Below, piece after piece: positions 15,086 through 47,789 of a stretch of DNA of 64,000 bases. A model generated the notes under the pieces. That model worked only from the letters and a program-made list of their open reading frames with translations. It was not told where the DNA came from and did no database searches. Every line of letters starts with the position of its first letter. Positions within the stretch are counted from its first letter, which is position 1. The DNA is from Longimicrobiales bacterium (GTDB taxonomy: Bacteria; Gemmatimonadota; Gemmatimonadetes; Longimicrobiales; Gaopeijiaceae), in contig CBDBCH010000002.1 in the NCBI GenBank assembly GCA_965203235.1, positions 94-64,093 on the forward strand, read 5' to 3'. Position numbers and translations under genes: made by a program.

Positions 15086-15498
15086 CAGTATGCATCCTCG
15101 TATTCACACCGCGGGCACTGCCCGCATCGGGTGCCAATCGGGGTCGCGTCGATTGGGGTCTTGCGCACCACGCGGTAGGTGATGGAGGAGTGCCCGGTCT
15201 CGTCCTCATCCTCGTATCGGATGAGCGAGACCGTCTCCGGGTCGCGCCCCCAATCCTCTGCCGCCACCGCAATCGCATCGGCGCGACCGGCAGCAGAGTC
15301 GAGCGCGTCCCAGTCCGCGCTGGAGTCGATAGCGATCTCCAGTGCTTCCGAGACATCGACCTCAGCGGAATAGATGACCGCGCCATCGTGGGAGTAGGCG
15401 CAGGCGGCCCGGAGCTCGTCGCTCCAGCACTCGCCAGCGGCCCCGTGCGGTTCGCCGAACTCGGGAACTTCAGCGCGGTAGATGGTGAGCTTTCTCAT
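15085..15498 (-). CDS. Telomere-proximal hypothetical protein (137 aa)
   Basis: Mirror of 17308..17721, identical translation. Confidence 0.6.
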   Translation of the reverse strand: MRKLTIYRAEVPEFGEPHGAAGECWSDELRAACAYSHDGAVIYSAEVDVSEALEIAIDSSADWDALDSAAGRADAIAVAAEDWGRDPETVSLIRYEDEDETGHSSITYRVVRKTPIDATPIGTRCGQCPRCEYEDAY

Positions 15499-15505
15499 GT
15501 GACTG

Positions 15506-15612
15506 CCCTCCTTTGTGGCAGACGGGAATCCTAGCGTGCCCGAATTCGCCCTGTCAAGTGCCAATTCGCCCAAATCGGCACTTTTTTCGCCCAAATCGCA
15601 TTTTTTTTCGCC
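15506..15612 (-). promoter_or_regulatory. ITR promoter/operator/RBS module (mirror of 17194..17300)
   Basis: Reverse complement of the module described at 17194..17300. tgtcaa at 15552..15557 and atccta at 15528..15533. Confidence 0.55.
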
Positions 15613-15827
15613 TCCTGCGGCCGGAAAACGAAAAAACGCACGAAAGGGGTTCAGACGCCACCGGAACGACCGAGGGGATAGCTGGCTAGCCGTAGCGCGC
15701 CAGGATGCCCACAGCGCGCCACAGAATCGCATTCAGGGGAACATCTGACCGGCAGACGCCCCCGGATTCGGACCGCCGGGGCGGAAAAGACCGGCCGACC
15801 GCTCCGAAAAATCGCCTCCCCATCTCC

Positions 15828-15887
15828 GAGTCGCCTCCCCCCCGACTCCCCCCTGAGGGGGAGGAGGAGTCGGGGTGGAGGCGTCTC
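15828..15887. repeat. G/C-rich 60-bp imperfect palindrome inside the ITR
   Basis: gagtcgcctcc (15828..15838) pairs with ggaggcgtctc (15877..15887) at 10/11. ccgactcc (15842..15849) pairs with ggagtcgg (15866..15873) at 8/8. Both share one axis (sum 31715). Also present in the other three ITR copies (about 16919..16978, 51357..51416, 52351..52410). Confidence 0.7.
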
Positions 15888-15992
15888 TCCAAAACACCCT
15901 CGAAAACGGCGCAAATCGGGGGAGCGAGGGCGGGACGCCAGGGACGCGGGTTCGACCGGGGGGTTCGAGGGCGGAAATCGGGGTTCTGAAAC

Positions 15993-16288
15993 CTGTCATT
16001 CGCGCTTCATTCTCGCTTCATTCTCGCTTCATCAAGGCGATGAAAGCTAACATCCCTGGGGGGGGAGTTCGGGAAATGAACCGGGGGGCTTCCACCGCTG
16101 GCGGGGATGATTCGCGGATGAAGCGCGGATGATAGAGACATCAGCGAGACATCAAGGCTAACATCAAGGGCGGATGAAGCGCGGATGATAGAGACATCCG
16201 GCGTGTCATACGGCGATGAAAAGCTAACATCAAGCTGTCATCAAGCCCACGAGCGCTATGCATAAGGCGTGTCATGTATCATTTTCGC
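15993..16288. repeat. Subtelomeric iteron-like repeat array (ITR copy A)
   Basis: An 11-bp tandem repeat gcttcattctc occurs at 16004, 16015 and (degenerate) 16026. A 29-bp direct repeat gcggatgaagcgcggatgatagagacatc occurs at 16114..16142 and 16170..16198. gctaacatc(aag) occurs 3 times (~16046, 16157, 16223). gatgatag occurs at 16128 and 16184. Confidence 0.85.
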
Positions 16289-16517
16289 AAGCGGGAGTTT
16301 GCACCTATCATCGTTCTCCGGCGCGAAACATGCTGGGGCTAGCGGGGCTTGCGGGCTATCATCGTCCCCAAGAGCTTCTAGCGGTCCCCGGCTTCTAAGG
16401 CTGTGCCTTAGACGCCGGGGATCGCAAGAATCTCTAGGGGAGGATGATAGACCGCTAGCCCCGCTTGCCCCACCATGATTCGCGGCGGGGAAGGATGATA
16501 GGTGCATACTCCCGCTA
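16289..16517. other. Junction-1 core: 229-bp imperfect palindrome, candidate duplex copy of a mismatched hairpin telomere
   Basis: Pairing i with 32806-i gives 96 complementary and 16 non-complementary pairs per 112-nt half, with no indels. The 5-nt apex ctgtg is at 16401..16405. The flanks are exactly complementary from 16288/16518 outward. Confidence 0.85.
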
Positions 16518-17317
16518 GCGAAAATGATACATGACACGCCTTATGCATAGCGCTCGTGGGCTTGATGACAGCTTGATGTTAGCTTTTCATCGCCGTATGA
16601 CACGCCGGATGTCTCTATCATCCGCGCTTCATCCGCCCTTGATGTTAGCCTTGATGTCTCGCTGATGTCTCTATCATCCGCGCTTCATCCGCGAATCATC
16701 CCCGCCAGCGGTGGAAGCCCCCCGGTTCATTTCCCGAACTCCCCCCCCAGGGATGTTAGCTTTCATCGCCTTGATGAAGCGAGAATGAAGCGAGAATGAA
16801 GCGCGAATGACAGGTTTCAGAACCCCGATTTCCGCCCTCGAACCCCCCGGTCGAACCCGCGTCCCTGGCGTCCCGCCCTCGCTCCCCCGATTTGCGCCGT
16901 TTTCGAGGGTGTTTTGGAGAGACGCCTCCACCCCGACTCCTCCTCCCCCTCAGGGGGGAGTCGGGGGGGAGGCGACTCGGAGATGGGGAGGCGATTTTTC
17001 GGAGCGGTCGGCCGGTCTTTTCCGCCCCGGCGGTCCGAATCCGGGGGCGTCTGCCGGTCAGATGTTCCCCTGAATGCGATTCTGTGGCGCGCTGTGGGCA
17101 TCCTGGCGCGCTACGGCTAGCCAGCTATCCCCTCGGTCGTTCCGGTGGCGTCTGAACCCCTTTCGTGCGTTTTTTCGTTTTCCGGCCGCAGGAGGCGAAA
17201 AAAAATGCGATTTGGGCGAAAAAAGTGCCGATTTGGGCGAATTGGCACTTGACAGGGCGAATTCGGGCACGCTAGGATTCCCGTCTGCCACAAAGGAGGG
17301 CAGTCACATGAGAAAGC
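16404..17317. repeat. Inverted terminal repeat, copy B (left end of the complete genome unit)
   Basis: Reverse complement of 15489..16402. Shares its outer 800 bp (16518..17317) with 51950..52749, the same 790-nt distance from core edge to ATG. Confidence 0.9.
17194..17300 (+). promoter_or_regulatory. ITR promoter with phased GGCGAA boxes and RBS for the telomere-proximal gene
   Basis: TTGACA at 17249..17254, 18-nt spacer, TAGGAT at 17273..17278, AAGGAGGG at 17293..17300, ATG at 17308. GGCGAA boxes sit at 17194, 17215, 17236 and 17256 (spacing 21/21/20 nt). The last box lies in the promoter spacer. Boxes 2 and 3 belong to a longer repeat, tgc(c)gatttgggcgaa. Confidence 0.6.
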
Positions 17318-17721
17318 TCACCATCTACCGCGCTGAAGTTCCCGAGTTCGGCGAACCGCACGGGGCCGCTGGCGAGTGCTGGAGCGACGAGCTCCGGGCC
17401 GCCTGCGCCTACTCCCACGATGGCGCGGTCATCTATTCCGCTGAGGTCGATGTCTCGGAAGCACTGGAGATCGCTATCGACTCCAGCGCGGACTGGGACG
17501 CGCTCGACTCTGCTGCCGGTCGCGCCGATGCGATTGCGGTGGCGGCAGAGGATTGGGGGCGCGACCCGGAGACGGTCTCGCTCATCCGATACGAGGATGA
17601 GGACGAGACCGGGCACTCCTCCATCACCTACCGCGTGGTGCGCAAGACCCCAATCGACGCGACCCCGATTGGCACCCGATGCGGGCAGTGCCCGCGGTGT
17701 GAATACGAGGATGCATACTGA
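17308..17721 (+). CDS. Telomere-proximal hypothetical protein (137 aa), acidic, C-terminal CxxCxxC
   Basis: The ATG lies 8 nt after AAGGAGGG. The first 3 codons (MRK) lie inside the ITR. ORF-track 17074..17721 is trimmed to the RBS-supported start. Ends ...CGQCPRCEYEDAY. Confidence 0.6.
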   Translation: MRKLTIYRAEVPEFGEPHGAAGECWSDELRAACAYSHDGAVIYSAEVDVSEALEIAIDSSADWDALDSAAGRADAIAVAAEDWGRDPETVSLIRYEDEDETGHSSITYRVVRKTPIDATPIGTRCGQCPRCEYEDAY

Positions 17722-17972
17722 TGGGCATGTTCCGGCGGGGGCTCGACGATGGTCGGGCCCCCACATACCGCCCCGGCGACCGGCTCGCCGAGATCGCCCG
17801 GCGCCGCGAAGCGGGGGACGACACCCCCACCATCCAGTACGAGGTCGTCCAGGACTACGGGCCGCCTGCGCCGCGCCCGAAGCGCGGACCCTGCCCCACC
17901 TGCGACCGGGGCATGGATTGGATCGCCCCGGCGAACATATGCTGGCTGTGCCAGCGAGAGGCGGACGCATGA
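17721..17972 (+). CDS. Small zinc-ribbon protein (83 aa)
   Basis: CPTC...(13 aa)...CWLC. TGATG coupling at 17719..17723 and ATGA coupling at 17969..17972. Confidence 0.55.
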   Translation: MGMFRRGLDDGRAPTYRPGDRLAEIARRREAGDDTPTIQYEVVQDYGPPAPRPKRGPCPTCDRGMDWIAPANICWLCQREADA

Positions 17973-18244
17973 GACGCACCGTCTGCTTCCGCAGGACGGC
18001 CGCGGTCGATTCGTTCGATGTCCTCGTCCTATCTGACACAAAGCCGCCCGTGCTGGTCGGGTACTTCTACTCCTACTCGCACGGATACCAGTTCTGCCCG
18101 CACGTGGTGCACGCGGAGGCTTCCACGCTGTTGAAGGGAACCCCTTTCGAGGAAGGTTGCGACATCTACATGGGCGGTAAGACCCAAGCGAAGGCTATGG
18201 ATACCGTCCGCAGGATGATCCTGAATCCCCCGAAGGAGGCGTAG
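17969..18244 (+). CDS. Hypothetical protein (91 aa)
   Basis: MRRTVCFRRTAAVDSFDVLVLSDTKPPVLVGYFYSYSHGYQF... The ATG at 17969 overlaps the upstream stop. The longer ORF-track ORF (17420..18244) upstream part is Arg/Pro shadow sequence. Confidence 0.5.
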   Translation: MRRTVCFRRTAAVDSFDVLVLSDTKPPVLVGYFYSYSHGYQFCPHVVHAEASTLLKGTPFEEGCDIYMGGKTQAKAMDTVRRMILNPPKEA

Positions 18245-18245
18245 C

Positions 18246-18470
18246 ATGACCGAATCCATGACTATGCCCGAAGCCATCTCCGCGCTTGCTTCCATCTTGC
18301 GCGGAGACGAACCCCAACAGCCCATTGACATCATCCGGCTTCACATCGAGCACCATTCCGGCCTCTTCTACCGGAAGGAACTGCTTGACCTCTGTGACGC
18401 CGTTCAGGAAGTCGCCGACACTTTCGATAGTGGATGGGTGCCAATGCTCGACGAGGAGAGCCATGAATAA
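18246..18470 (+). CDS. Hypothetical acidic protein (74 aa)
   Basis: ATG lies 2 nt after the upstream TAG. Co-directional tight packing. Confidence 0.5.
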   Translation: MTESMTMPEAISALASILRGDEPQQPIDIIRLHIEHHSGLFYRKELLDLCDAVQEVADTFDSGWVPMLDEESHE

Positions 18471-18837
18471 CTTGACCCCACACGCCATCAGCATCTATGA
18501 CGACGATTTCGTCGTGGAGATTCCCCCGACTTTCAACAGACCGCTCCGTCTGAAACTCGAACAGGAAAAGGTCTCGACAATCCGCGTCGAAGGGCACACC
18601 ATTCCCGTATTCAGCGCGGGGAAGCCGTCAAAGGAAGCCATCCGGCACATCCAGCAAGCCCTCGACACCTACTCGAATGGCGGAACAGAGTATGTCATCG
18701 TCCCCACGATGCTGCTCCCCTATGTCCCCGATTCATTGAAGCCGGTGGTTTTCGCACCCGACACCGGCCCTGATTCCGTCGTGCGGAACGAAGAGGGAAG
18801 AATCGTCGGTGTGCGAAGGTTGCTCTGCGCCCAATGA
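18463..18837 (+). CDS. Hypothetical protein (124 aa)
   Basis: MNNLTPHAISIYDDDFVVEIPPTFNRPLRL... ATG at 18463 (residue 60 of ORF 18286..18837), with an 8-nt overlap with the upstream gene. Confidence 0.5.
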   Translation: MNNLTPHAISIYDDDFVVEIPPTFNRPLRLKLEQEKVSTIRVEGHTIPVFSAGKPSKEAIRHIQQALDTYSNGGTEYVIVPTMLLPYVPDSLKPVVFAPDTGPDSVVRNEEGRIVGVRRLLCAQ

Positions 18838-19400
18838 CTACAATCAGCTTTTCCGCCCCCGACGACCTCACCGAGGCCATTGACCGGGAAGCCGCCCGAA
18901 TCGGCGAGGACCGCTCCGTCGCGCTGCGTATGGTCTTGCGGCGAGTCCTGCGCGTCTGGCCGAAGGGCGAAGCCCCTGTGATTGACGATTACGTGCAGCC
19001 GCCGGAGACCGTCCCGGAATCCATGATCGACCCAACCGTCGATCCTGATACCGGCGAGGCGGTTGGAGTGTTCGAGCCTGGAAAGCAGAACAACGGCGGA
19101 ATCAACTTCGTGGGGATTGGAGAATCCGCCGGCAGTAGCGAATCAACTGCCGATGCTGGCGCACGCAAGTGCCCCCCGCACCGCTACATGACCCCGAAGG
19201 TGAATGTCGCCAAGTTGAAGTGCCAGACCTGCTCGAAGGAAACATCCTTGAAGTGGGTCGCCGGTCGCCCCGACATTGCGGAAAACATAATCGCCTCCCG
19301 GAACAAGCTGCCAGGCGACCAGTCCGCTTGGATCCACACGTTCCTCTCGGTGGTGAATCAAATCCGCAAACGCAACGGGCGCAAGCCCATCGACGTGTGA
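18834..19400 (+). CDS. Ribbon-helix-helix (CopG/Arc-like) DNA-binding protein with C-terminal Cys cluster (188 aa)
   Basis: The N-terminus TISFSAPDDLTEAIDREAARIGEDRSVALRMVLRRVL fits a beta-strand/helix/helix RHH pattern. The C-terminal part has CPPH...CQTC. ATGA coupling upstream. Confidence 0.6.
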   Translation: MTTISFSAPDDLTEAIDREAARIGEDRSVALRMVLRRVLRVWPKGEAPVIDDYVQPPETVPESMIDPTVDPDTGEAVGVFEPGKQNNGGINFVGIGESAGSSESTADAGARKCPPHRYMTPKVNVAKLKCQTCSKETSLKWVAGRPDIAENIIASRNKLPGDQSAWIHTFLSVVNQIRKRNGRKPIDV

Positions 19401-19936
19401 TGCCTCGCGTTCAACTCCCGAACGGGAACTGGGTGGATTTGTACCCCGACCAGCAATGGCGAGCCGACAACACGAAGCTGCTCCGAAACTGGAAAAAGCG
19501 ATTCAACGAAGCCAACCCGGAGCTTGCCCGCACCACGAAGCAAATCATGTCCCTTCCAGCGGGGTGGAAGGAAGCCGACAGGCGAGCCGCTACTCGAACA
19601 GCCGAACCCAACGGAGACAGTGCGCCGGATAGGCCTCATTTTCCCGGCAGGACGCCGCCGACCGGAACCGGCGGCACTCCGTCCGGTTCCGCCAATCCCA
19701 CCGGTCCGCCATTGCCTCTTGCTCCCGGAACAGGTAGGAGGCGCCGCCGTTGTAGGCCGCTGCCGCCCAAGCCCACCGGGTGCGACGGTCCGGGGCGCCA
19801 GGGAACGCGCGCAGATTCTCGAGAGTCAGGGCGCACTGGACGCGGAACGCCACCACAGGAGAGTCGGGGCCGCCCGCCGCGCCCGCAAGACGCGCCCGGT
19901 AGACGCGACGCACCGCGCGCATCGTTCCGGGCATGA
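19400..19936 (+). CDS. Hypothetical protein, 3' end uncertain
   Basis: The ATG at 19400 overlaps the upstream TGA. The first ~70 codons look coding. No in-frame stop occurs until 19936, so the ORF overlaps the convergent SLT gene by ~350 nt with a Pro/Gly/Arg-rich tail. Confidence 0.35.
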   Translation: MPRVQLPNGNWVDLYPDQQWRADNTKLLRNWKKRFNEANPELARTTKQIMSLPAGWKEADRRAATRTAEPNGDSAPDRPHFPGRTPPTGTGGTPSGSANPTGPPLPLAPGTGRRRRRCRPLPPKPTGCDGPGRQGTRADSRESGRTGRGTPPQESRGRPPRPQDAPGRRDAPRASFRA

Positions 19937-20156
19937 CCTGCGCCAGACCGATGGCGCCAGCCGGGGATACGGCATCCGGGCGCCAGCGCGATTCCTGGGT
20001 GACCTGACCGAGCATCCAGGGTTCGTAGACCTGCCGGAGTCCGCACCGGCGCCACTCCATGTCCCACGTGTCTCTGTATGGCGCCGCTTCCGGCGGCCAG
20101 GCGTAGCCGATGGTCGCCATCAGGAGCGTCGCCGCGACCGCTCCGAGCCACCTCAC
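19590..20156 (-). CDS. Lytic transglycosylase (SLT domain), probable endolysin
   Basis: Mirror of 12649..13215 (x+y=32805). SLT signature QESRW...AGAIGLAQVMP and AYNGG. Confidence 0.85.
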   Translation of the reverse strand: MRWLGAVAATLLMATIGYAWPPEAAPYRDTWDMEWRRCGLRQVYEPWMLGQVTQESRWRPDAVSPAGAIGLAQVMPGTMRAVRRVYRARLAGAAGGPDSPVVAFRVQCALTLENLRAFPGAPDRRTRWAWAAAAYNGGASYLFREQEAMADRWDWRNRTECRRFRSAASCRENEAYPAHCLRWVRLFE

Positions 20157-20176
20157 GGGCAGCCCACCCCCTCGCT

Positions 20177-20368
20177 TCAATTCGGGGTGAAGGCGGCGCC
20201 GACCTCGACCTTTTCCCCCGAATCCCGCTGGGTCGCGGGGACGTAGCGCAGCCGCCGCTCCTCCGCCGCCCGCTGGCGCCTGCGCCCGATCTCCCGCCCG
20301 CACCGGAGGCAGTACGGGGCGCCGTTCAGCGTCTCGTTGGCGCAGTTCAGGCAGACTTTTCGCCGCAC
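20177..20368 (-). CDS. Small zinc-ribbon protein (63 aa)
   Basis: Mirror of 12437..12628. CLNC...CLRC. Confidence 0.5.
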   Translation of the reverse strand: MRRKVCLNCANETLNGAPYCLRCGREIGRRRQRAAEERRLRYVPATQRDSGEKVEVGAAFTPN

Positions 20369-20661
20369 TTCCCCTCCTCCCGGATACTACTCATCGTCTG
20401 GCGAACTTCGGCGTCCTCCCGGTCCCATCCCTCGGTGAGCCCCCGAATGAACTCTTGCGCTTCCTCCAGCGTATCGAATCCGTCCTTCCAGCCCATGCCA
20501 ACCCAGGGATTCCAGTTCCACTTTTTCTCTGTTGGGTCGCCCTCCATTGGCGAGAGCCACTGGAGATAGCCCCGCATCCGGGCGGCGTAGTAGACCTCGT
20601 AGCTGGCGACCTTGTACCGCCGGTCAATCGGGCGAATCGGAACGAACAGGACTTTCGCCAT
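20347..20661 (-). CDS. Hypothetical protein (104 aa)
   Basis: Mirror of 12144..12458. Confidence 0.5.
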   Translation of the reverse strand: MAKVLFVPIRPIDRRYKVASYEVYYAARMRGYLQWLSPMEGDPTEKKWNWNPWVGMGWKDGFDTLEEAQEFIRGLTEGWDREDAEVRQTMSSIREEGKCGEKSA

Positions 20662-20957
20662 CAGTGCCTCGCCATGCTCAGGATGATGACGCACCACAGC
20701 GCGGTCAAGCAAACCACTCCGGCGATACGCTCTTTCTCGGTCTTGGGGGTGATCCAATCGAGCGGCAGGAAGTAGGCGGTACACGCCGCCAGCAGAATCC
20801 CGGCGAGACTGGTGGACCACTGGTACATGACATCTCTCGGTATCGCCCGGTAGGCCTCGCCGGTCACCGGGTCGGTGCCGAAGGACAGGAGCCAAGTGGA
20901 GCCGACGAAGCCCGCGACGGTCACGGCGAAGCCCGCCGCCAGTAGTGATCGCTTCAT
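20661..20957 (-). CDS. Multi-pass membrane protein (98 aa), holin-like candidate
   Basis: Mirror of 11848..12144. Confidence 0.5.
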   Translation of the reverse strand: MKRSLLAAGFAVTVAGFVGSTWLLSFGTDPVTGEAYRAIPRDVMYQWSTSLAGILLAACTAYFLPLDWITPKTEKERIAGVVCLTALWCVIILSMARH

Positions 20958-21085
20958 TTCCGCTTTCGCTTCCCGCGCCCCATGTGGAACATGGTGTATT
21001 CCGATACGAACATCAGCACCGCAGCCGACAGGGTGATAGTCGCAACGAAGGCGACGAATATCCAAATGGCTTCCGTCTCGGTCAT
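20954..21085 (-). CDS. Small membrane protein (43 aa)
   Basis: Mirror of 11720..11851. Confidence 0.5.
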   Translation of the reverse strand: MTETEAIWIFVAFVATITLSAAVLMFVSEYTMFHMGRGKRKRK

Positions 21086-21393
21086 CTTTTCGCCTTTGGC
21101 GGAACCAGCGCAATCACCGGGTGAAGCGCGTCGAACTCCCTCGCGGAAAACACCATGACCCGGTCCCCCAAGACTCCCCCCCCGGTCAACGACTGAACCT
21201 CGACCCGGCCAGCGTTGTAGGCTTTCAAGCTCATCGAGCGAATCACCGACTTCTTCATCAGAGCCGGTCCGCCCGAAGAATCCCGAATCTCGTGCAGAAT
21301 CGTCCCCACCTGATACCGGGGTTCGTTCAGAATCCGCTCGGTGCTGCGCCAAGCCCGGAGACCGGAAAAGATGTTCGTCAGAATCGAGAGCAT
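21082..21393 (-). CDS. Hypothetical protein (103 aa)
   Basis: Mirror of 11412..11723. Confidence 0.5.
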   Translation of the reverse strand: MLSILTNIFSGLRAWRSTERILNEPRYQVGTILHEIRDSSGGPALMKKSVIRSMSLKAYNAGRVEVQSLTGGGVLGDRVMVFSAREFDALHPVIALVPPKAKR

Positions 21394-21397
21394 GGGT

Positions 21398-21634
21398 CTA
21401 CTCTAGCTCAGCGCGGATACGCCGCTTGGCCTCCGCGAAGGAAGGGTAGGTGCCGAACTCGGTCCCGGAGCGCGACATCCAAAGCCAACTCTTGTTCAAG
21501 ACCTGCATGAGTATTCCCCAATCCTCGGTCAGTTCTCCCGGACCATCCGCCCGCTTGACGTCGTATCCGGGGTGCCCCGCCTCCCCATGAAGTTTCCGCG
21601 ACAGGAACCTGACCTTGTTCGGCTTGTCGCTCAT
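21398..21634 (-). CDS. Hypothetical protein (78 aa)
   Basis: Mirror of 11171..11407. Confidence 0.5.
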   Translation of the reverse strand: MSDKPNKVRFLSRKLHGEAGHPGYDVKRADGPGELTEDWGILMQVLNKSWLWMSRSGTEFGTYPSFAEAKRRIRAELE

Positions 21635-22308
21635 GACGCCAAGAGTACCACAGCGACCGCGAGGGCGATAGCCCCGGCAGTGGCGATACGCCGCCGGTTC
21701 GTGCCCCGCCACTCCTCGACCCGCGCCTCTGCGGTTTCCGCCCGCTTTTCCGCGTACTCCCGCGCCGCCCGTTCTTCGGAGTAGGCGTACTGCAGGTCAG
21801 CGATAGCCGCCTCCAACTGCGCCGCCCTAACCGTCTGCAGGTCAAGCTCATGCTCCAGGGACTCAGCGAAAAGCGACATCTGCCGGAACCCCAAGTTCGC
21901 CACCTTTGCGACCTCGTAAGTGGACGCGCCCTCCGGCAACTCGGAGATTTCCCGCTTGACCTCCTCTACCGCCTCCCGGCGACGGTCAGTAACCTGTTCC
22001 CGGTATCTCCGAAGCTGGTCCTCCAGCCCGGTAGCCTTCAACCGGTGCTCGTAGGCTTCCTGCGCCGCCTCCGAAGCCGCTTCCTGCGCTTCCTTTCCCG
22101 CTTTTTCAAGCTCCACGATCCGCTCCTCATACGCGGCTTGCGTCGCCTCCAGCACTTCCGGGGGATCATAGCAAGACCGGATAGTCAGTCCCCCAAGTAT
22201 AGCCCCGACCAGCAAGCCCCCGAAGAGCACCGGCGGAATAACTTGCCACGGAACCCGCGCCCCTTCCCGTATCTCGTGGCGGATGATTTGCGGGGCAACG
22301 GCGTTCAC
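21631..22308 (-). CDS. Membrane-anchored coiled-coil protein (225 aa)
   Basis: Mirror of 10497..11174. Two terminal TM helices flank a coiled coil. Confidence 0.6.
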   Translation of the reverse strand: MNAVAPQIIRHEIREGARVPWQVIPPVLFGGLLVGAILGGLTIRSCYDPPEVLEATQAAYEERIVELEKAGKEAQEAASEAAQEAYEHRLKATGLEDQLRRYREQVTDRRREAVEEVKREISELPEGASTYEVAKVANLGFRQMSLFAESLEHELDLQTVRAAQLEAAIADLQYAYSEERAAREYAEKRAETAEARVEEWRGTNRRRIATAGAIALAVAVVLLAS

Positions 22309-22472
22309 TTTTTCCCCGCAGGTCCCCGCTCCACCTTCCAGAGGGGTTCGCTTGCCGCCCGCCGGATACGCCTGTCGGTGCGGTCAATCCGCGCCTCCAC
22401 CGCATAGAGGACGAAGCCCACGAAGGCCATGAGCATCCCCAGGTAAATCAGAATGAAAAGCTCCTCGCTCAT
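22305..22472 (-). CDS. Small membrane protein (55 aa)
   Basis: Mirror of 10333..10500. Confidence 0.55.
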   Translation of the reverse strand: MSEELFILIYLGMLMAFVGFVLYAVEARIDRTDRRIRRAASEPLWKVERGPAGKK

Positions 22473-22708
22473 CACTTGCCCCCTCCATTGATCCGCGCCC
22501 GAAGGTGCGTCAAATCCTCTTGCTGGCGGTTATGCGCCTCAGAGACAGAACGTTCCATGTCCCGAATCGCTTGAACGACATCCCGAAAGCCCTGCTCCAT
22601 TCGCTTGCCCTGATCCTCCACCATTTTCTTGACCTCAGCCATCATGTACCAGACGGAGGCGCCGAGAGAGACGAACAGGACGGCGATCTCGACAATCAAG
22701 TCGGTCAT
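22472..22708 (-). CDS. Small membrane protein (78 aa), N-terminal TM helix plus charged tail, holin-like candidate
   Basis: MTDLIVEIAVLFVSLGASVWYMMAEVKK... The ATG overlaps the upstream stop (ATGA). ORF-track 22472..22858 is trimmed to this start. Confidence 0.55.
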   Translation of the reverse strand: MTDLIVEIAVLFVSLGASVWYMMAEVKKMVEDQGKRMEQGFRDVVQAIRDMERSVSEAHNRQQEDLTHLRARINGGGK

Positions 22709-23670
22709 CGTTGTACCCCATAGGTGTAGGACAGTCGAGGGTGAGCCTTCAACAGGGGCTTCAACGCGACTATGTTGAAGGGATTGGAAATGCGCCCAAG
22801 GTGGGTATCCTCGATAGCCTTGCGACTCTCCTCGAGCTTCGCTTCCTGAGCCTTCCACTGAACATACGCCCGGTCCGACTTGAAGAAGTCAGCGACATGC
22901 CAATCCTCCCCGAAGGTCCCGGCAAGGTATTTCTTCGCCGCTTTCTCCACCTGTGCGAAGGTGCTAGCCCGTGCGAAGTCGGCTTCCAGAGCCATCCCCA
23001 CTTCGATTAGCGCGAGCGTTGCCCGGTCCTTGTTCGCATTCGCCGCCGCCGCCTTTCCGGTCATGTAGCTCGCCATTGCGGAAAGCTCTTGCTCCCGGTT
23101 CGCCCCCTTGATGATCCGCTCGGCCGCCGGACGCCAATGGTCGTAGACCTCCTTCATACCGCTCCAATGCGAGTAGACCGCAAACACCCGTTCGGTGAGT
23201 CCCCGCATAACTCCGTTCTTGACATGCGCAGCCATCTTCAAGTCAGCGTCAGCCGGGAGCGAGAATGTTGGCGTGATCGCAGAGTACGAGTTCGGATACC
23301 TGAACTGAATGTCGTATTGCCCGTGTTCGATTTCAACTGGCTTGAACTGCGGATTGGCAGCCGTCAACCCCCAGTTCACAGCCCTTTCCAGCCAACGCTT
23401 TTTCCCCGAAGGAATAGGGACATAGCCATAAGGCGAGTAGCTAGCAGGGAAATGGTGGTCGTAGCTCTCATCGTCGAAGTCGGGGTGCTCCATACGCAGA
23501 CCGATACCTTCCGAAGCCGCCTCCCGCGCCTCCGCGATAGTCCCGATACAAACTCCAACCCATCCAGTAGGGGTAATCTGGTCGCGCCCGAAGAAAGTCG
23601 GGAATTCTCTCGGTCGTGGCGTGTCGGGGTCCCGGAAAATGTAGAGCAACGTGTCGGTGGCAGATGCCAT
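22705..23670 (-). CDS. Hypothetical protein (321 aa) between the tail and lysis genes
   Basis: Intact ORF, 1 nt downstream of the 871-aa gene. No motif recognised. Confidence 0.6.
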   Translation of the reverse strand: MASATDTLLYIFRDPDTPRPREFPTFFGRDQITPTGWVGVCIGTIAEAREAASEGIGLRMEHPDFDDESYDHHFPASYSPYGYVPIPSGKKRWLERAVNWGLTAANPQFKPVEIEHGQYDIQFRYPNSYSAITPTFSLPADADLKMAAHVKNGVMRGLTERVFAVYSHWSGMKEVYDHWRPAAERIIKGANREQELSAMASYMTGKAAAANANKDRATLALIEVGMALEADFARASTFAQVEKAAKKYLAGTFGEDWHVADFFKSDRAYVQWKAQEAKLEESRKAIEDTHLGRISNPFNIVALKPLLKAHPRLSYTYGVQR

Positions 23671-23671
23671 A

Positions 23672-26287
23672 TCAGATAAACCTCACTTGACCCGCAAGAA
23701 TGTTGTGGTCGACGTTGAAGCAGGCGATGCCAACGCCAGTTGCGTAGACACCATCTTCAACCATAGAAAGAATCATAACAGGATCGCTCGACACGCCCGC
23801 TATGAACGCGCGACTCGGTCCCGCCATAGGTTCGCGAAGGTTGTCCGCAAGCCCCAGGAAAAGTAGCACAGCCATCTTCGCGGTCGTGCTGGTAGGCAGG
23901 GTGAAGCTCCCCGCCCCGAACAGGTCTCCAATATCGATGTCCGCACGAGTCAGCCGGATAATCCGCTCGCCCGCGCCTTGCGTCTCGCCTTGATCCGAAT
24001 CCGGGTTCACGCGCATCGCAATCTCATCGATCCGGGCGATTTCTATCGCTCTCCCGAAGGAGATGTTAGTCATCGTCGTCCCGGCGATGTTGTTCGTCTT
24101 GGCGGTCTTGATGACACGCTGCGAACTCCCGATGAATGGGTGCGTCTCGTCTGCGATGTTGGGGAGATTGAGATACTCCAGCTTCGCCTTGAGAGTGTCC
24201 CCACTTCCGAAGTTCACGGCACCGCTTGGGTCGCCAGTGGCATCCACAGCGACCATGCGCAGCTTCAACTTGTCATCGAAGCGGAACGAATCCTTATGGA
24301 ACTCGTAGGTATGGCTCGCGCCGCTGGTGAACTCGATAGGGCCATCACTGGTGCGCGACAGCACCCAATCGAATCGCGTGGGCGTCCCGGTGGTCAGGTA
24401 CTGAATCCGCATCTTTGTGCCGGAAGTGCCACTGATCTGCGGCGTGTTCATAGTCAACCGAAGAACATTCGCTTCCTCCGGCCAGGGCAGATAAATCGTT
24501 CCGGGGTAAGGACTAAGAGGATCAATCCCGATTCCCGAAAGGTCTTCCGTCCACTCAAGCGGCGTCCTCACATGGTCGGGGTTGCTGTCAGGGTGCGAAT
24601 CAGAAGCCTTCGGGATGCCAAGCACCACCGCGCTGCCTCTGCTCGGACGGGGAGCCGTCCCCGCATTGATCGTCAGGTCAACGTACCTGTACGCCGAGTT
24701 CGCTGTATCGGTACTCACAGCCCCCATCGAATCCACATTCAGGCTATGAATCGCGCCCATAGGCCCAACAGTCTTTAGAGTCGGGAGGATGGAAAGGTCG
24801 CCTCTCCCGACATACGCCACATGGTGGTCTTTCAGAGCTTGGATAGCTGTTGGACTGCCGTAGATGCGGTACTGCTTGGCCGCGCTAGCCCCGCCTGACG
24901 TGTTCTCCGCCACGAAGTTGCCGTCAACGACATCCATCGCGCTTCCGGTCGGGAAGTACCGGACAGTGATTCGTTGTCCTACGCGAGGAATCTCAAGATC
25001 GCCAGCAGCAGCCGTCTCCATGCGCCGGGAGTTCATGTTGAAGATGACACGGGAGAGCGTCCCGAACTCCATCACCAACAGTCCGTCCTTCACTGTCTCG
25101 GTGGTAATCCCGTAGTTTTGGAGCGTAAAATCGACCAACTCATCGGCGGTCTGTGATCTGCGACCCAAGTCCTCCTCACCCGGACTTTCATCCGCGCCGA
25201 AGATGCGAGTGTCTCCACGCACCAATCGGAGTGGATAGTGTTGGTTCTCCAGATCGATGATCGCGCTGGTCATACCCGTGACAGACACGCGGGGATGATG
25301 CCGGAATGTGTGAATCGTCCGCTCGTCGGCGAGACTGTAGGCAGTCTCAAGCACCTTGTTGGTGCCCTGCAAAGATTCAATCTCAACGCGCTGTGCGATG
25401 TGCCCCGTCAGTGCCTGCAATCCATAGAGATCGAAAGACCGCTCTTCATCAAACGTGGCGGTATAGAGCGGGCGGTGACGAGACTGGAAGAACTGGATGC
25501 CGTTCTTCGTGACACCAGTAGCACTGAACCCCAAGGGGTCTCGGTTCGTTTCCGAACTCGAAATCTCATACTCGTCAAACTGGAAGTCTCCCCATGAGGC
25601 GACAGTGCTGTTGTTGACAGTTCGCGTCAGGGCGTACTCGGTGTCTCCTATCTTCACCCGAATCAAGGTATTGACGAAGCTCTTGAACCTGAACTTACTG
25701 ACGGGCGTAGCAGCCGAAGTGGAGTACATAGCCACCAAAAGGTGGTTCGGAACGTCAGAAAGTTCTCCGCCATCCACCCTCGCAAGGTCTCCGCCCTGCG
25801 GCAATGTCTGCGTAGCGGTGGAAGGCGCGATAGACCATCCGTAAACATTCGGAGTAGTTGCAACGATCCCCGAAGTGACAGTCAGTTCGACCTCGTGGAT
25901 GTGCCTTTGCTGCGTTTGGATGTTCTGCATGGCAACCCTGTCCGCGTTGCCATTCGGCACGAACGAGGGCAGCGTGTCTTCCCAACCGACCCACTGGCTC
26001 CAAATCCCGGAGCGTCTCACGCGGCTCTTGCCGCGATCACCCTGTTGGGCGTGTTGCTCAATGTCAGGCGGGCTTCCGCCAGCGAGCACCGCCACCCGCA
26101 TAGACCACTTGGTGCCGTCGAACGGCCTGTGGTCCATCTCTCCGGTCGGGTAGTAGGTGCCCGGCTCAACGACGAGGTTCCAATCGCCAAGCCCAACATC
26201 CACGCCGATAGGACTGGTGGACGTGCCGGGAACGATAGCCGTACCCCCGTGGAGAACTGTGATCCCCTTCTCGATTCGGAAGCTCAT
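23672..26287 (-). CDS. Large tail/baseplate-associated protein (871 aa)
   Basis: Intact ORF. The ATG overlaps the stop of the upstream fibre gene (26287). Position is within the tail module. No catalytic motif recognised. Confidence 0.6.
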   Translation of the reverse strand: MSFRIEKGITVLHGGTAIVPGTSTSPIGVDVGLGDWNLVVEPGTYYPTGEMDHRPFDGTKWSMRVAVLAGGSPPDIEQHAQQGDRGKSRVRRSGIWSQWVGWEDTLPSFVPNGNADRVAMQNIQTQQRHIHEVELTVTSGIVATTPNVYGWSIAPSTATQTLPQGGDLARVDGGELSDVPNHLLVAMYSTSAATPVSKFRFKSFVNTLIRVKIGDTEYALTRTVNNSTVASWGDFQFDEYEISSSETNRDPLGFSATGVTKNGIQFFQSRHRPLYTATFDEERSFDLYGLQALTGHIAQRVEIESLQGTNKVLETAYSLADERTIHTFRHHPRVSVTGMTSAIIDLENQHYPLRLVRGDTRIFGADESPGEEDLGRRSQTADELVDFTLQNYGITTETVKDGLLVMEFGTLSRVIFNMNSRRMETAAAGDLEIPRVGQRITVRYFPTGSAMDVVDGNFVAENTSGGASAAKQYRIYGSPTAIQALKDHHVAYVGRGDLSILPTLKTVGPMGAIHSLNVDSMGAVSTDTANSAYRYVDLTINAGTAPRPSRGSAVVLGIPKASDSHPDSNPDHVRTPLEWTEDLSGIGIDPLSPYPGTIYLPWPEEANVLRLTMNTPQISGTSGTKMRIQYLTTGTPTRFDWVLSRTSDGPIEFTSGASHTYEFHKDSFRFDDKLKLRMVAVDATGDPSGAVNFGSGDTLKAKLEYLNLPNIADETHPFIGSSQRVIKTAKTNNIAGTTMTNISFGRAIEIARIDEIAMRVNPDSDQGETQGAGERIIRLTRADIDIGDLFGAGSFTLPTSTTAKMAVLLFLGLADNLREPMAGPSRAFIAGVSSDPVMILSMVEDGVYATGVGIACFNVDHNILAGQVRFI

Positions 26288-29200
26288 TACGCCCTCGTAA
26301 TCCCCAACCGGAGTCCCTGCGTCACAGAGCTACGCCACGTGTACTCGCTCTTGTACCACTCGTACTGGACGCCCCCGATGGTCAATGTAGTTGTTCCTTT
26401 TGTCCATCCGGTGCTTGTGCCGCCGTCCAAAGTCCATCCAATGATGTCGCCGTCGGTGACGCGCTGGATGACGTAAAAATGTCGGTCGGCACCGCTCCAG
26501 GTGCGATTGACGACAACTTCCTGATTACCCGATGTACTGACGCGAGTGCTTTGCAGAGTAGAAAGGTCCAGGCTGCTAGTTGGATCAGCCGCCAGACCAC
26601 CAAAAAAGAAGTCATGCGCCCCGGAGCGGGTGCCTTGTGCATGGTCAATCGCCTCCTTGACGCGAAGTGCAGTCATGTAGTCTACATTATCAGTTCCGGC
26701 CACGGCTTCCGCCTCCGAAGCGATGTCGGGGATGGGGATGTCAAGCACCCGGTTCGGAAAGTTCCGGTTGTGGCGAATCAGCGTGATCTGCTTGCCGGAT
26801 ATGGTCGCTTCCCGGAAGGTGAAAGCGAAGCCGGTGCTGTTGATAGACCACTGCGCCCCGTCCCAAACAAGCAACCCGATGTCGCCATCTACCAGAGCCT
26901 GCGCCAGTTGCGGTCCGGTAGTCTGCTGCGCATTGACCTGCATGCCCACGCTGTGTGAGGACGTGTTCGCCAACAGAGCCACTTCCACGCGGGAAGAGTG
27001 CCCGGTCAGGGCGGGCAGAGTGATAGTCCCGGTTGCGCTCCCGATGTACCAGAGACTCTTGCGGTGAAGCTCTTGCGCCTCGGAAGCGGTGAAGGTACGC
27101 GAAGCGGAGATGAAAACATGGTCGCTCTCATCGAGCTTGTCCTTCACCGCCTGCGCCAACTTCGCCTCGGTGATAACCCCGTCCCCGAAGCGGGTGATAG
27201 GGATAGTCCCCGTCTGCCCGACTTCGGCATACTGCTCCACCAGTGCCCGGACTTCCGATTCAATCAGGCCTGTGGTCTGCCCGGAGCGCGCCGGAACGGT
27301 GACAGTCTGCGTCGTCCCGTCTTGCCGGGTGAAGGTGATGATCCGGTTCGTAATCGAGGCACTGATGATCGGGTTCCGCGACTCCAGCGTGACCACCGCA
27401 TCGTTGATTTCCTTCAACGTGTCCCGACTCGCCGGTGCCCCACCCCGAACAGTCGTCAGCGCAGTGGCGACAGCCGTGTTGACTTCGGAGTCACGAGCAA
27501 TGCTCGCCGCAATCTTCGCATCTGGAACCAGGGAACTCGATCCTTCCCTCGCCCATGCAGCGACAGTCTCCCAATCGCCCTGGAACTCCCACACGCTTCC
27601 CGTCCACCGACCGAACATCGTCTGGCCGCTCGTCGTGCTTGTAAGTTCCCTCGAACGCAAGTTGCTCGCGCTCGTCGTCAACAATACGTTGGAGTTGTTG
27701 GGCGAAGCGTTTATCACTATCAGAGCACCAACGCCAGACCGGAGTGAGACTCGAATATCCGAAGTCGCCGTACATATCAGTATCCTCCCCGAAAGACGGG
27801 CGGTGTCTTCATTGGTAAGCGACACGTAGTCGCTGTCAATGTGGGTGATGCCGCCAAGCTGTCGCGGCTCCCACTTGCGAGTGCTGTCATCCCAATTGAT
27901 GGCTGCGCTGTCGCCCTGCTTGTTCAGGGCAATCGGGCCATCGATCCGGGAAGTGGGCGTGGCGGTGATACGCACAGCACCGGAACCCATGTTGAACACC
28001 AAGGTGCCCAAGTCGGTACTGCCGGTCGGCTCGGACAGCGTGATCGTGATGTCACTGTCGCTGTGCGTCAGTATGATCTTGCGGTGAAGCTGTGTCGATT
28101 CAGCGACAGTGAAAGTCCTGTCGCCAGTCACCACGATGATCTCATTCTGCGGCGCGGTGCCGCTGCCACCGGTGGTGGAACTGATCGTCAATTCATCGCC
28201 CTGCCGCACCACCTGTACGTTGGTGCCGGGCTTGATGAAGTCGGTGACGACGCTCCTGACGCCCACCGCATCCTGCCAACCAGTGGTGATAGTCGTAGTC
28301 TGACCCTGCTGGTTAGACGTGATGATGTCGTTGCCGGAAACAGCGACTGCCGTGACCGGGTTCCTGTTCTCGACTGCCAACAAAGCGGTGGCAATCTTCT
28401 CCAGCGTGTTGCGGTTCGCCGGAGGATTCCCCAAGATAGTGGAAAGGGTCGTAGCGTGACGCGCTTCCGCCCATCGTCTACCGATCAGCGTGGAGGCGTA
28501 GTGGAGATTTATCGGGTCGTTGGTGTCAGGGATATTGATATTCAGCGTCAGGTCGCTGTAGTTGACCCCGAACCGCGCCACCGCCAATGTGGAGACAGAC
28601 TTGTTGACGAAGATGTGAGTCGCATTCGCCAACTCGGTGTGCTCCGCATTGCTTGTCCGAATCCGAATCGAACTGCCGGACACCCTGTAGAACTCGCTCG
28701 CGTTCGGCGTCTGGGAAGTGGTGCGCGAGTAGGCACCAAGACTCTCCCCGATCATCTGCTCGCCGAACTCAAGCGGCAAGCGCGTCAGAGTCAGCGTATT
28801 CGCGGTGTCATCGTGAACGACGGAAATCCCGACGCCACGGATGAAGCCCGCAATGGTGTCACGCACCTGCTCCTGCGTCAGGCCGCCACCGCTGCCGCCA
28901 GTAGAGGCGATGGTCAGCGTGTCACCCACGCGGGTCAGCGTCACATTGCTGCCCGCCGCCAGGAAGGTTTCGACTGTGTTCCTTACGCCCGCAGCGTCCT
29001 GTAGCCCGGTGATCGACGGGATCGCACTGGTGCGAGCGATATTGCTTGAGAGCTTGGTGTCGGGGACATCGCTTGTATCCCCTGTTTCCGCCCAATCCGC
29101 GACGCCCGCCCTGACCCGCGCATCTACGGCAGCCTGGTCCAGCCCCGAAGTGCCGCCACCCCCGCCAGCGGGCAGGGTGACATTTTGTGTCGTGGCATCC

Positions 29201-30087
29201 CGGAACCGGAAGGACAGCACATTGCTGGAGAGACTGACCGCAATGACCGGGTTCCTGTTCTCCACAACGGCCAGCGCATTGTTGATCTCCTCCAGCGTGT
29301 TCCGGTTGCTTGGCGCATTCCCCCTGATCGCCGTCAACACATTGGCGACAGCATTGTTCAACTCACTGTCGCGGGCGATGCTCGCGGGGACTTTCGAGTC
29401 CGGCAACGGGGTGGTGTTCCCCGCCTCCGCCCAATCCGCTATCAGGGCCAGTACGCCCGCCCGGTCAATCGCCGGGGTCAGCGGAGCCACCGACAACGAG
29501 TCAGTGGAGCCATCCCGCTGGTGAACGACGATGTTGTCCCCCGACCGCTCCACATTGATGACCGCGCCACGCGCCGTCACCACCGCCAGGGCGTCCGCGA
29601 CTTTCTCCAGCGTGTCCCGGTCAGCCGCCACTCCTCCGCGCACCCGCGCCACCGCAGTCGCAATCGCAGCCGTGACGTCCGAATCCCGCGCAATGTCCGC
29701 CGCGAGCTTCGTGTCGGGAATCAGGGTCGCATTGCCCTGTTCCGCCCAATCCGCGATCAGCGCAAGGGCTTGGTCCCGGGTGAAGCCACCCGGAGCAATC
29801 GCAAGGGTCAGCCACGCGTTCGAGTAGTCCTTGCTGTTGCCGCTCCCCGTAACCAGCGTCGGTTCGAGCGACTGCACGTAGAGCCGGTCAGCCGTCGTGT
29901 CCTGGAGGAGGATGACCGCCAGCCGGTCCGCCTCGTAGCGGGCAACCCACGCCGCCGTTGCCGCCTGCGCGTCCCTTGCTGCCTCGGCAGCGGTCAGCGA
30001 AGCCGCCGCGAACCGGTTAGGGGAAGGGCCGATCTTGAAGGCGTCGCCAGCGAATCCGCCATGCCCGCCTGCCGGAGAGAGACCCAT
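26287..30087 (-). CDS. Tail fibre-like protein (1266 aa) with repeated ADWAE...IARDSE...NRNTLE modules
   Basis: There are 4-5 copies of a module such as LIADWAEQGNATLIPDTKLAADIARDSDVTAAIATAV..RGG...DRDTLEKVADALAVV. Gly-rich linkers (GGGGGTSG, STGGSGGG, TTGGSG) separate them. Follows the tape measure and distal tail genes. Confidence 0.65.
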   Translation of the reverse strand: MGLSPAGGHGGFAGDAFKIGPSPNRFAAASLTAAEAARDAQAATAAWVARYEADRLAVILLQDTTADRLYVQSLEPTLVTGSGNSKDYSNAWLTLAIAPGGFTRDQALALIADWAEQGNATLIPDTKLAADIARDSDVTAAIATAVARVRGGVAADRDTLEKVADALAVVTARGAVINVERSGDNIVVHQRDGSTDSLSVAPLTPAIDRAGVLALIADWAEAGNTTPLPDSKVPASIARDSELNNAVANVLTAIRGNAPSNRNTLEEINNALAVVENRNPVIAVSLSSNVLSFRFRDATTQNVTLPAGGGGGTSGLDQAAVDARVRAGVADWAETGDTSDVPDTKLSSNIARTSAIPSITGLQDAAGVRNTVETFLAAGSNVTLTRVGDTLTIASTGGSGGGLTQEQVRDTIAGFIRGVGISVVHDDTANTLTLTRLPLEFGEQMIGESLGAYSRTTSQTPNASEFYRVSGSSIRIRTSNAEHTELANATHIFVNKSVSTLAVARFGVNYSDLTLNINIPDTNDPINLHYASTLIGRRWAEARHATTLSTILGNPPANRNTLEKIATALLAVENRNPVTAVAVSGNDIITSNQQGQTTTITTGWQDAVGVRSVVTDFIKPGTNVQVVRQGDELTISSTTGGSGTAPQNEIIVVTGDRTFTVAESTQLHRKIILTHSDSDITITLSEPTGSTDLGTLVFNMGSGAVRITATPTSRIDGPIALNKQGDSAAINWDDSTRKWEPRQLGGITHIDSDYVSLTNEDTARLSGRILICTATSDIRVSLRSGVGALIVINASPNNSNVLLTTSASNLRSRELTSTTSGQTMFGRWTGSVWEFQGDWETVAAWAREGSSSLVPDAKIAASIARDSEVNTAVATALTTVRGGAPASRDTLKEINDAVVTLESRNPIISASITNRIITFTRQDGTTQTVTVPARSGQTTGLIESEVRALVEQYAEVGQTGTIPITRFGDGVITEAKLAQAVKDKLDESDHVFISASRTFTASEAQELHRKSLWYIGSATGTITLPALTGHSSRVEVALLANTSSHSVGMQVNAQQTTGPQLAQALVDGDIGLLVWDGAQWSINSTGFAFTFREATISGKQITLIRHNRNFPNRVLDIPIPDIASEAEAVAGTDNVDYMTALRVKEAIDHAQGTRSGAHDFFFGGLAADPTSSLDLSTLQSTRVSTSGNQEVVVNRTWSGADRHFYVIQRVTDGDIIGWTLDGGTSTGWTKGTTTLTIGGVQYEWYKSEYTWRSSVTQGLRLGITRA

Positions 30088-30377
30088 TACTCGTCCTCGG
30101 TGATAGCCACCGTGGAACCCTCGCCACTCACCACGAGCATGTGGTCGCCGTTCAGCGAGAACCCCCGCGAACTGCCGTAGCCATGCGGAGGAATCATAGG
30201 AGCAAAGCTAGTTATGGAATCATCCTGCAGGTTCGCCGGAAGCGAATCCACGAAGGCGACCCGCACAGAGTAGACCCCGACATTATCAAGCGTGTACCGC
30301 CCATCCCCGATACCCGCCGCCGTAGCAATATCCACGACCACCCCTGGTTCGAGAGTGACGAATCGGGTTTGCGCCAT
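30087..30377 (-). CDS. Hypothetical tail-module protein (96 aa)
   Basis: MAQTRFVTLEPGVVVDIATAAGIGDGRYTLDNVGVYSV... The ATG at 30377 lies just after the upstream stop (30379..30381). Confidence 0.55.
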   Translation of the reverse strand: MAQTRFVTLEPGVVVDIATAAGIGDGRYTLDNVGVYSVRVAFVDSLPANLQDDSITSFAPMIPPHGYGSSRGFSLNGDHMLVVSGEGSTVAITEDE

Positions 30378-30378
30378 G

Positions 30379-36263: not shown

Positions 36264-36574
36264 TACGCCCGCCCCGCCTGCGCAAGGGCATCCCGATGCT
36301 CTTCCAGCCGCTCGGACGCAACCTGCGCCTCATGCTCCCGGTACATGTCTACCATCCTACCACTCGGTGCGCCAATCCCCCGTTGCGCAGCAGCGTCCAG
36401 CGAGTCGTATCGCTGGATCATCCTCGCCGCGTCGGAGTAGTACGCCGTCGCCAGAGCCATAATCGCCTCCGGGTTGCGGTCAATCTCTTTCGCCGCTTCC
36501 AGCGGGGTGCACCGGAAGCGATCGCAAATCCGCACCAGCAGCAGAGACCGTGGAACGGGTCCGCCGTGCTCCAA
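36263..36574 (-). CDS. Hypothetical protein (103 aa), possible tail assembly chaperone
   Basis: Directly upstream of the tape measure, with start/stop overlap at 36263. Confidence 0.45.
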   Translation of the reverse strand: MEHGGPVPRSLLLVRICDRFRCTPLEAAKEIDRNPEAIMALATAYYSDAARMIQRYDSLDAAAQRGIGAPSGRMVDMYREHEAQVASERLEEHRDALAQAGRA

Positions 36575-36591
36575 GGCCCGGTGGACCCGAA

Positions 36592-37038: not shown

Positions 37039-37039
37039 A

Positions 37040-38285: not shown

Positions 38286-38297
38286 GGTGGGTCTCCT

Positions 38298-39548: not shown

Positions 39549-39549
39549 G

Positions 39550-39921: not shown

Positions 39922-39923
39922 GA

Positions 39924-40436: not shown

Positions 40437-40450
40437 CAGACGCTCCCGTA

Positions 40451-41602: not shown

Positions 41603-41623
41603 GACGCTCCCTCCTTACCGCCC

Positions 41624-42313: not shown

Positions 42314-42333
42314 ACGCGCACTCTAGCACATAT

Positions 42334-44618: not shown

Positions 44619-44639
44619 GGTGCTGGAGCGTATCCCACC

Positions 44640-47772: not shown

Positions 47773-47789
47773 CGTGATATGCTATCCCC

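Follow-up and report, generated by a model that had tools for sequence, protein, structure and literature searches.

The contig CBDBCH010000002.1 (67,717 bp; C3 in what follows) is part of a four-contig, 3.54-Mb assembly (GCA_965203235.1) of a Longimicrobiales bacterium belonging to the Gemmatimonadota. The window analysed here is the whole stretch of 64,000 nucleotides from base 94 to base 64093 of this contig, and it appears to contain the linear genome of a tailed phage bounded by inverted terminal repeats (ITRs). A 300-residue RpoB segment from the chromosome has 87% identity to a Gemmatimonadota MAG, and all of its best matches come from that phylum. This work is centred on the inner boundary of the repeat, which falls within the first codons of an open reading frame (ORF) at each end of the phage genome: ORF-L, of 137 amino acids (MRKLTIYRAEV..., 17308..17721, + strand), and ORF-R, of 98 amino acids (MRKQIENHAGL..., 50731..51027, - strand). 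The first 10 nt of both ORFs are inside the ITR.

The part of the repeat that is identical at the two ends comprises 800 nt. The left copy (16518..17317, + strand) is non-coding save for its last 10 nt and is present at 100% identity in four copies; the same 800 nt are found, reading inward, at the right end (51018..51817, - strand), and each of these two copies has a mirror in an inverted partial copy of the genome (15489..16288, - strand, for the left ITR; 51950..52749, + strand, for the right ITR). Self-BLASTN and a search of the genome agree on the complete identity of 16518..17317 with 51950..52749 and on the mirrors at 15489..16288 and 51018..51817, and exact-match extension from a shared anchor, applied to the four inward-reading copies (16404 and 51884 rightwards, 16403 and 51883 leftwards), gave 798 identical nucleotides for every left-right pair. 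The three approaches coincide with the coordinates of the original prediction, which had been made by reading the sequence. Shared identity stops at ...ATGAGAAAGC / ...CACATGAGAAAGC / ...GGAGGGCAGTCACATGAGAAAGC, 10 nt inside the first gene at both ends as had been proposed, and over the next 300 nt the left and right sequences are only 20% identical, which makes the edge abrupt. The further claim that the two ends are identical from the telomere core onwards holds inward from 16518 and 51950; it does not hold for the outermost ~105 nt, of which there are two versions with 16 differing positions. The ITR module has no third copy anywhere in the 3.54-Mb genome.

From the outside to the inside, the ITR is made up of a hairpin arm, iteron-like repeats, a G+C-rich spacer, two GATTTGGGCGAA boxes, a promoter match, a Shine-Dalgarno sequence and the ATG with 7 further nucleotides. 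The ~0.9-kb ITR is the entire non-coding terminal region of the phage genome. Between the iteron-like array and the promoter region there is also a G+C-rich inverted repeat, CCCCGACTCC...GGAGTCGGGG, at 16925-16975 and in the mirrors.

The expression signals are located where the original prediction placed them. A sigma-70-like promoter directed inward is predicted at 17249..17278 (+ strand) from the match TTGACA-18 nt-TAGGAT (TTGACA 17249-17254, TAGGAT 17273-17278), and it is followed by the Shine-Dalgarno sequence AAGGAGG (17293..17299, + strand), 8 nt before the ATG at 17308. At the right end, on the - strand, the promoter match occupies 51086-51057, AAGGAGG is found at 51042-51036 and the start codon at 51027-51025. 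TTGACA-18-TAGGAT is the sole 10/12 match on both strands of the 35.5-kb phage unit, with a spacing inside the 16-18 nt norm, and of ~42 phage gene starts only that of the gene at 18246 has a Shine-Dalgarno match as long as AAGGAGG, none having a longer one. Just upstream of the -35 element lie the two GATTTGGGCGAA boxes, 21 nt apart (17209..17241, + strand), which are candidate operator or activator sites. They have 8 matches in the window against 0.36 expected, and all of them are within the four ITR copies. Because the boxes are unique to the ITR and lie directly upstream of the promoter match, the arrangement fits a regulated promoter. A structured mRNA leader was also considered and dropped, since folding of this region was no better than that of shuffled sequence.

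Downstream of the shared codons the two ORFs diverge and are unrelated, as originally stated; no alignment between ORF-L and ORF-R was obtained even at E <= 100. Their coding character was assessed with a codon-usage table trained on long host ORFs. The frame of ORF-L scores +0.209 per codon over 133 further codons and that of ORF-R +0.223 per codon over 94 further codons, values equal to those of the structural genes of the phage (0.13-0.26 per codon), and the other two frames are negative at both ends; on the right they run into stop codons after 12 and 32 codons. The same score bears on where the proteins begin. The frame is open from further upstream, at ATG 17074 on the left and 51261 on the right, and if the real start were there the ITR would encode 81 residues common to both proteins, a shared N-terminal domain. 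Nevertheless, the 78 extra codons reduce the coding score at both ends (24.3 vs 27.9 on the left, 16.6 vs 20.1 on the right), there is no Shine-Dalgarno sequence ahead of 17074, the extension would traverse the promoter-like site and the A/T-rich boxes, and the public gene calls are the forms of 137 and 98 amino acids. The lowered score, together with the Shine-Dalgarno sequence before the inner ATG, indicates that the repeat is non-coding and that translation starts at 17308 (51027 at the right end); the shared domain was therefore rejected on coding score and is very improbable.

Each of the two ORFs opens an inward-reading run of small genes. On the left, the rest of the operon consists of five translationally coupled small genes (17721..19400, + strand), the last of which (18834-19400) has a weak ribbon-helix-helix match. 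On the right, the small genes that follow ORF-R occupy 47206..50743 (- strand), and the first of them (50522-50743) overlaps the ORF-R stop by 13 nt. These genes have zero Pfam matches and two weak PHROG matches, and runs of this kind are typical of phage early or accessory regions.

With the edge of the repeat at +10, translation of two unrelated small genes would begin from one and the same initiation region. The 10 nt shared inside the ORFs plausibly belong to this region, which reaches to about +13 on the mRNA: AGA AAG is A-rich, and AGA, the rarest arginine codon of the host, rises from 3.3% of arginine codons overall to 9.3% at codons 2-5. In the phage, AGA is the second codon of four independent genes (those at 17969, 47790 and 48129 and the ITR starts), which suggests that A-rich codons are preferred right after the start. 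Judged from the sequence, ORF-L and ORF-R are probably both transcribed from the same promoter, so that both ends would be switched on and regulated together.

The ends themselves can be studied because the contig reads around them. Self-BLASTN revealed that C3 is a giant palindrome in which one full unit (~16404..51884, 35.48 kb) is flanked by two inverted partial copies, the left one with 99.7% identity to the full unit and 58 gaps and the right one with 99.85% identity; just ~3.2 kb of the contig is single-copy DNA. The junctions are left-left and right-right (head-to-head and tail-to-tail), with palindromic arms of ~16.5 kb and ~15.7 kb and alignments of 33.0 kb and 31.5 kb across the palindrome centres, so a circular monomer cannot be the source of C3. 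On sequence alone, such junctions look the same whether they derive from reading around a hairpin or from a replicative concatemer. When window positions 1-10300 are compared with 22500-32900, the outer left copy is found to be rich in 1-nt indels (58 gap openings in 33 kb), and the inner ~6 kb of the left inverted copy is a near-perfect match to the full unit; these indels look like poor polishing at the end of a long-read contig.

The left turn-around (16289..16517) is an imperfect palindrome of 229 nt whose two arms of ~105 nt have 16 single mismatches and whose tip is formed by a stem of 8 bp and a loop of 3 nt (TGT). The right turn-around (51818..51949, 132 nt) has the same core in the opposite orientation and lacks 97 nt. 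The versions of the arms are flip/flop-like, their arrangement at the left turn-around being opposite to that at the right. Folded as single-strand DNA, the 229-nt left core forms one long hairpin (-118 kcal/mol, z = -20) interrupted at regular intervals by single mismatches; with 16 mismatched positions and an odd 3-nt centre, the left junction is not a perfect palindrome. Since the arms are mismatched, adapter sequence is lacking and the junctions are left-left and right-right, the ends of the phage look like incompletely base-paired hairpins of the poxvirus/rudivirus kind.

It could be argued that the palindrome was made by fold-back or chimeric reads or by traversal of a repeat graph, and that the boundary or its identity is a product of the assembler or polisher. 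The composition of C3, one full unit with two partial inverted copies in 67.7 kb, is what such an artefact could give, the 58 indels of the outer left copy are typical of poorly polished contig ends, and the right turn-around is without 97 nt. Against this, the differences between the arms of the turn-arounds are 16 substitutions, without any indel or adapter sequence, whereas a fold-back at a blunt duplex end would yield perfectly complementary arms, and left-left and right-right junctions are impossible from a circular monomer. The repeats are moreover internal to C3, not stubs of k-mer length at its ends, extend over 800-914 nt and have unique sequence on their inner side in 4/4 copies; even misjoined ends would still leave both junctions with unique sequence at ...ATGAGAAAGC. 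An assembly artefact is consequently considered unlikely.

The reading that we favour is that the window is a read-around assembly of one linear tailed-phage genome of 35.5 kb (unit 16404..51884), and that a single duplication of one end, followed by homogenisation of the copies and by selection, explains the start shared by ORF-L and ORF-R; taken as a whole, this is given a probability of about 0.6. The mechanism would involve one terminal duplication or end exchange, by illegitimate recombination or template switching, that copied one end onto the other and had its inner breakpoint among the first codons. The copies would thereafter be kept identical, as in poxviruses, by gene conversion or by ordinary recombination between the homologous ends, and the position of the breakpoint would reflect survivorship, since the viable junctions are those that leave the inner operon with a promoter, a ribosome-binding site and an in-frame start. 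Neither an identity gradient near the ITR boundary nor protein similarity between left-arm and right-arm genes was found. These two results and the lack of a third copy of the module point to a sharp event, probably recent, and they argue against the erosion of a longer ITR. It had originally been suggested that some mechanism maintains the boundary by copying across the translation start. Such a mechanism is unneeded, because an open continuation is frequent by chance (27% of positions and frames in unique DNA give >=95 open codons) and junctions that silence the operon would be selected against; a one-off breakpoint plus homogenisation is enough.

Several observations weigh against this interpretation. 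The same 27% of chance continuations means that an open frame behind the boundary is by itself little surprise. The ITR promoter is predicted from its consensus match, and upstream of Gemmatimonadota host genes TTGACA...TAnnnT has no clear enrichment, in a survey that used crude and noisy sets of genes and intergenic regions; the original idea of two end genes wired to one expression signal stands as an arrangement of the sequence. ORF-L and ORF-R are regarded as genes on the basis of codon usage, the Shine-Dalgarno sequence and operon context. ORF-L has no homologue among 5.8 billion clustered proteins, a full HMMER scan of 1.84 billion representative proteins with ORF-R returned its self-match alone, and neither has a Pfam or PHROG match. 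Their AlphaFold models are weak (pLDDT 65 and 51, respectively), and with these models Foldseek gave nothing below E = 0.05 against the PDB. The perfect identity of the four ITR copies may stem from consensus polishing of a long-read assembly, and the hairpin ends are deduced from one contig.

Some of these observations would also be expected if the boundary were a neutral accident, that is, if its position at the start codon were fortuitous and the promoter idle, the ORFs being transcribed from elsewhere or one of them (likeliest ORF-R) being a fortuitous frame. A mere consensus match in a unit where 9/12 matches occur at chance frequency, a host without clear use of the consensus in the crude survey, the chance frequency of open frames and two ORFs without homologues all fit this explanation. 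What it does not account for is that both continuations score like confirmed structural genes with the other frames negative, that each of the two ORFs is translationally coupled to the gene behind it, that neither another promoter-like site nor an intergenic gap lies between the ITR and the end genes, and that the ATG common to both ORFs has the strongest Shine-Dalgarno sequence of the phage 8 nt ahead of it. For these reasons the neutral accident is regarded as rather unlikely.

A third gene of the phage (47790..48125, + strand; 111 amino acids) begins with the same 10 nt, ATGAGAAAGC, as ORF-L and ORF-R. Its product matches phrog_503 (E = 1.4e-22) and gave nothing in Pfam or PDB sequence searches; the alignment begins at profile position 29, so its N-terminus may be shorter than that of the family. 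This coincidence has led us to consider an active boundary, in which ATGAGAAAGC or the start region would be a preferred recombination point (through microhomology or as a nuclease or recombinase site) at which the first genes have been swapped repeatedly. If the junction had formed at a 10-mer that both genes already possessed, neither protein would have been altered, which would explain the in-frame fusion. The 9-mer of the shared start is uncommon in host DNA, where 3.4 Mb contain 15 copies and ~3 of these are at gene starts. However, upstream of the 47790 gene the sequence shows no relation to the ITR, the phage favours AGA as second codon, and the probability of a second identical 10-nt start by chance is roughly 0.02-0.05, which is suggestive only. 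Besides, there are no relatives that display repeated exchange and no recombinase tied to the site. Repeated swapping at the boundary is thus improbable, and it is equally doubtful that the ITR is a portable expression platform whose inner-edge 10-mer, ATGAGAAAGC, is a reused junction, with the 47790 gene as a trace of exchange. The sharp breakpoint in the first codons fits the one-off end duplication filtered by selection.

If the promoter carried by the repeat is active, two different sets of small genes would be switched on from one duplicated control module, and both ends could be under one regulator, for which a candidate would be the ribbon-helix-helix protein encoded in the left operon, with the GATTTGGGCGAA boxes as its target. 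For the Gemmatimonadota, a poorly studied phylum, this would provide a concrete way of testing how a phage expresses its early genes. Were the platform idea true, it would mean that a hairpin-ended tailed phage has built-in shuffling and co-regulation of early or anti-defence genes. Taken alone, a boundary located inside a gene is a variation on poxvirus terminal repeats. The larger surprise would be that a tailed phage has ends of the hairpin type while lacking a recognisable terminase.

Related to this, the remaining genes of the unit are those of a tailed phage: an SLT lysin (19590-20303), a tape measure protein (34056-36263), an HK97-like capsid protein (40451-41602), a scaffold protein (41624-42313), a D12 methyltransferase (42334-43176) and a portal protein (43176-44618). 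Two AAA_25 ATPase genes (RepA/DnaB-like) come next. The first (44678-45934, + strand) diverges from the portal gene and occupies the usual position of the terminase beside it, and the second (45931-46974, - strand) converges with the first, with a 4-nt overlap. No terminase was recognised on C3, no polymerase in Pfam and PHROG scans of ~40 phage ORFs, and no Rep (HUH) nickase or Holliday-junction resolvase among the scanned ORFs. Across the whole 3.54-Mb genome, a six-frame search gave no match to the protein-primed family-B polymerase PF03175, and there is no match to the protelomerase (ResT/TelK) catalytic domain PF16684. The two AAA_25 ATPases and the phrog_503 protein encoded at 47790, described as Vsr-like by an earlier reader, are only candidates for the enzymes that would resolve the ends.

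Two other contigs of the assembly are of interest. C4 (41,546 bp) is a second, conventional tailed-phage-like replicon; it has a G+C content of 62.1%, the same as C3, and encodes a large terminase (PF20441/PF03354), an HK97-type portal protein (PF04860), a tape measure-like protein and a Prim-Pol/AAA_25 protein. Its DNA is not similar to that of C3, and the replicon is a possible helper for the terminase-less phage. C2 (4,221 bp) consists mostly of a ~1.6-kb repeat that is present in the chromosome (C1) in at least 7 copies at 94-95% identity, and it resembles a fragment of an insertion sequence that was left unplaced.

The portal protein of the phage has 41-43% identity to its nearest matches. 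In the contigs that encode them (L005/L172, L006 and L007) the layout upstream of the portal gene is different: RusA adjoins the portal gene, and the gene that diverges from the latter is VapE-like or of another helicase type. There is no terminase beside the portal gene in these contigs, no inverted repeats in the DNA portions compared and none of the end genes. The closest of them, L172 (ENA contig ctg149151l, 97 kb, G+C 43%; portal identity 41%), has RusA beside the portal gene and, upstream of the latter, six tandem D12-class adenine methyltransferase genes and five tandem DUF6197 genes (10981-15890 and 6706-9019). L007, a 15-kb fragment with a G+C content of 61%, like C3, bears tandem arrays of ~77-nt and ~54-nt units at 75-230 and 2565-3034, near the contig end and away from the structural genes; they may be telomere-adjacent repeats. 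No relatives of the phage were found in 301 genomes of the family of the host. Among the relatives in IMG/VR none is classed as ITR-bearing and none has the AAA_25 gene, and a 36-kb IMG/VR contig with a 37%-identical portal protein has no inverted repeats and gave only noise in a tblastx comparison. Exact-pattern scans found nothing for the telomere motif in viral, genome and metagenome collections, or for the module of ribosome-binding site and start in a metagenome collection, and single-protein locus searches gave no relatives.

The original prediction compared the two ends with those of phi29-like and adenoviral genomes. In phi29, PRD1 and adenovirus, inward early transcription units are found at both ends of a linear genome with ITRs, and the comparison survives as an analogy of arrangement. 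These genomes have short ITRs (6 to ~160 bp) and a terminal protein covalently bound to the ends, and the promoters at their two ends are different sequences located inside the ITRs and not one duplicated module. The absence of PF03175 places the phage outside this class; likewise, a contig that reads through both ends by way of an imperfect hairpin argues, as far as assembly evidence goes, against open, protein-capped ends. N15, PY54, phiKO2 and VP882 are tailed phages with an intracellular linear form that has hairpin ends, as is proposed here. Nevertheless, in N15-type phages the hairpins are made by a protelomerase at a perfect palindrome (telRL) and there is no long ITR, so the lack of a protelomerase, the imperfect junction and the long ITR leave the phage outside that class too. 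The platform idea discussed above would find its likeness in telomeric expression sites such as that of vmp in Borrelia, where the upstream homology sequence spans the start codon.

Hairpin-type ends combined with long ITRs are known from poxviruses, African swine fever virus (ASFV), chloroviruses and archaeal rudiviruses, so far not from tailed phages, and it is these genomes that the phage would most resemble in its way of working, which does not imply a common clade. Among the Rudiviridae, the 35-kb genome of SIRV2 is covalently closed at its ends and has ITRs of 1.6 kb, and replication of SIRV1 and SIRV2 begins at the termini (bioRxiv 10.1101/2021.11.18.469202; PMC5062984). Genome size and end architecture are strikingly similar to those of the phage, whose closed ends are predicted from one assembly; unlike it, rudiviruses are rod-shaped viruses of Archaea, have no genes in common with it and carry whole ORFs inside their ITRs. 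Poxviruses (vaccinia, myxoma), ASFV and chloroviruses have linear double-stranded DNA with incompletely base-paired hairpin ends in two inverted forms, as the phage appears to have. In poxviruses, again as here, the ITRs are identical at both ends; they are homogenised by recombination and their length is set by non-homologous events, and the genes near the ends are accessory and often expressed early. It has been described that poxvirus ITRs expand and contract by non-homologous events, that a mutation in one ITR reappears in its counterpart, and that the ITR of myxoma virus Lausanne ends within the ORF M156R (PMC9973261). The phage differs from poxviruses in its bacterial host and its tailed-phage genes (portal, HK97-like capsid and tape measure), and neither a resolvase nor a polymerase of the poxvirus type was recognised in it. 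Unlike that of poxviruses, its ITR holds no complete gene; what is distinctive here is that the repeat duplicates a complete expression module and stops at codon 4 of the gene that follows.

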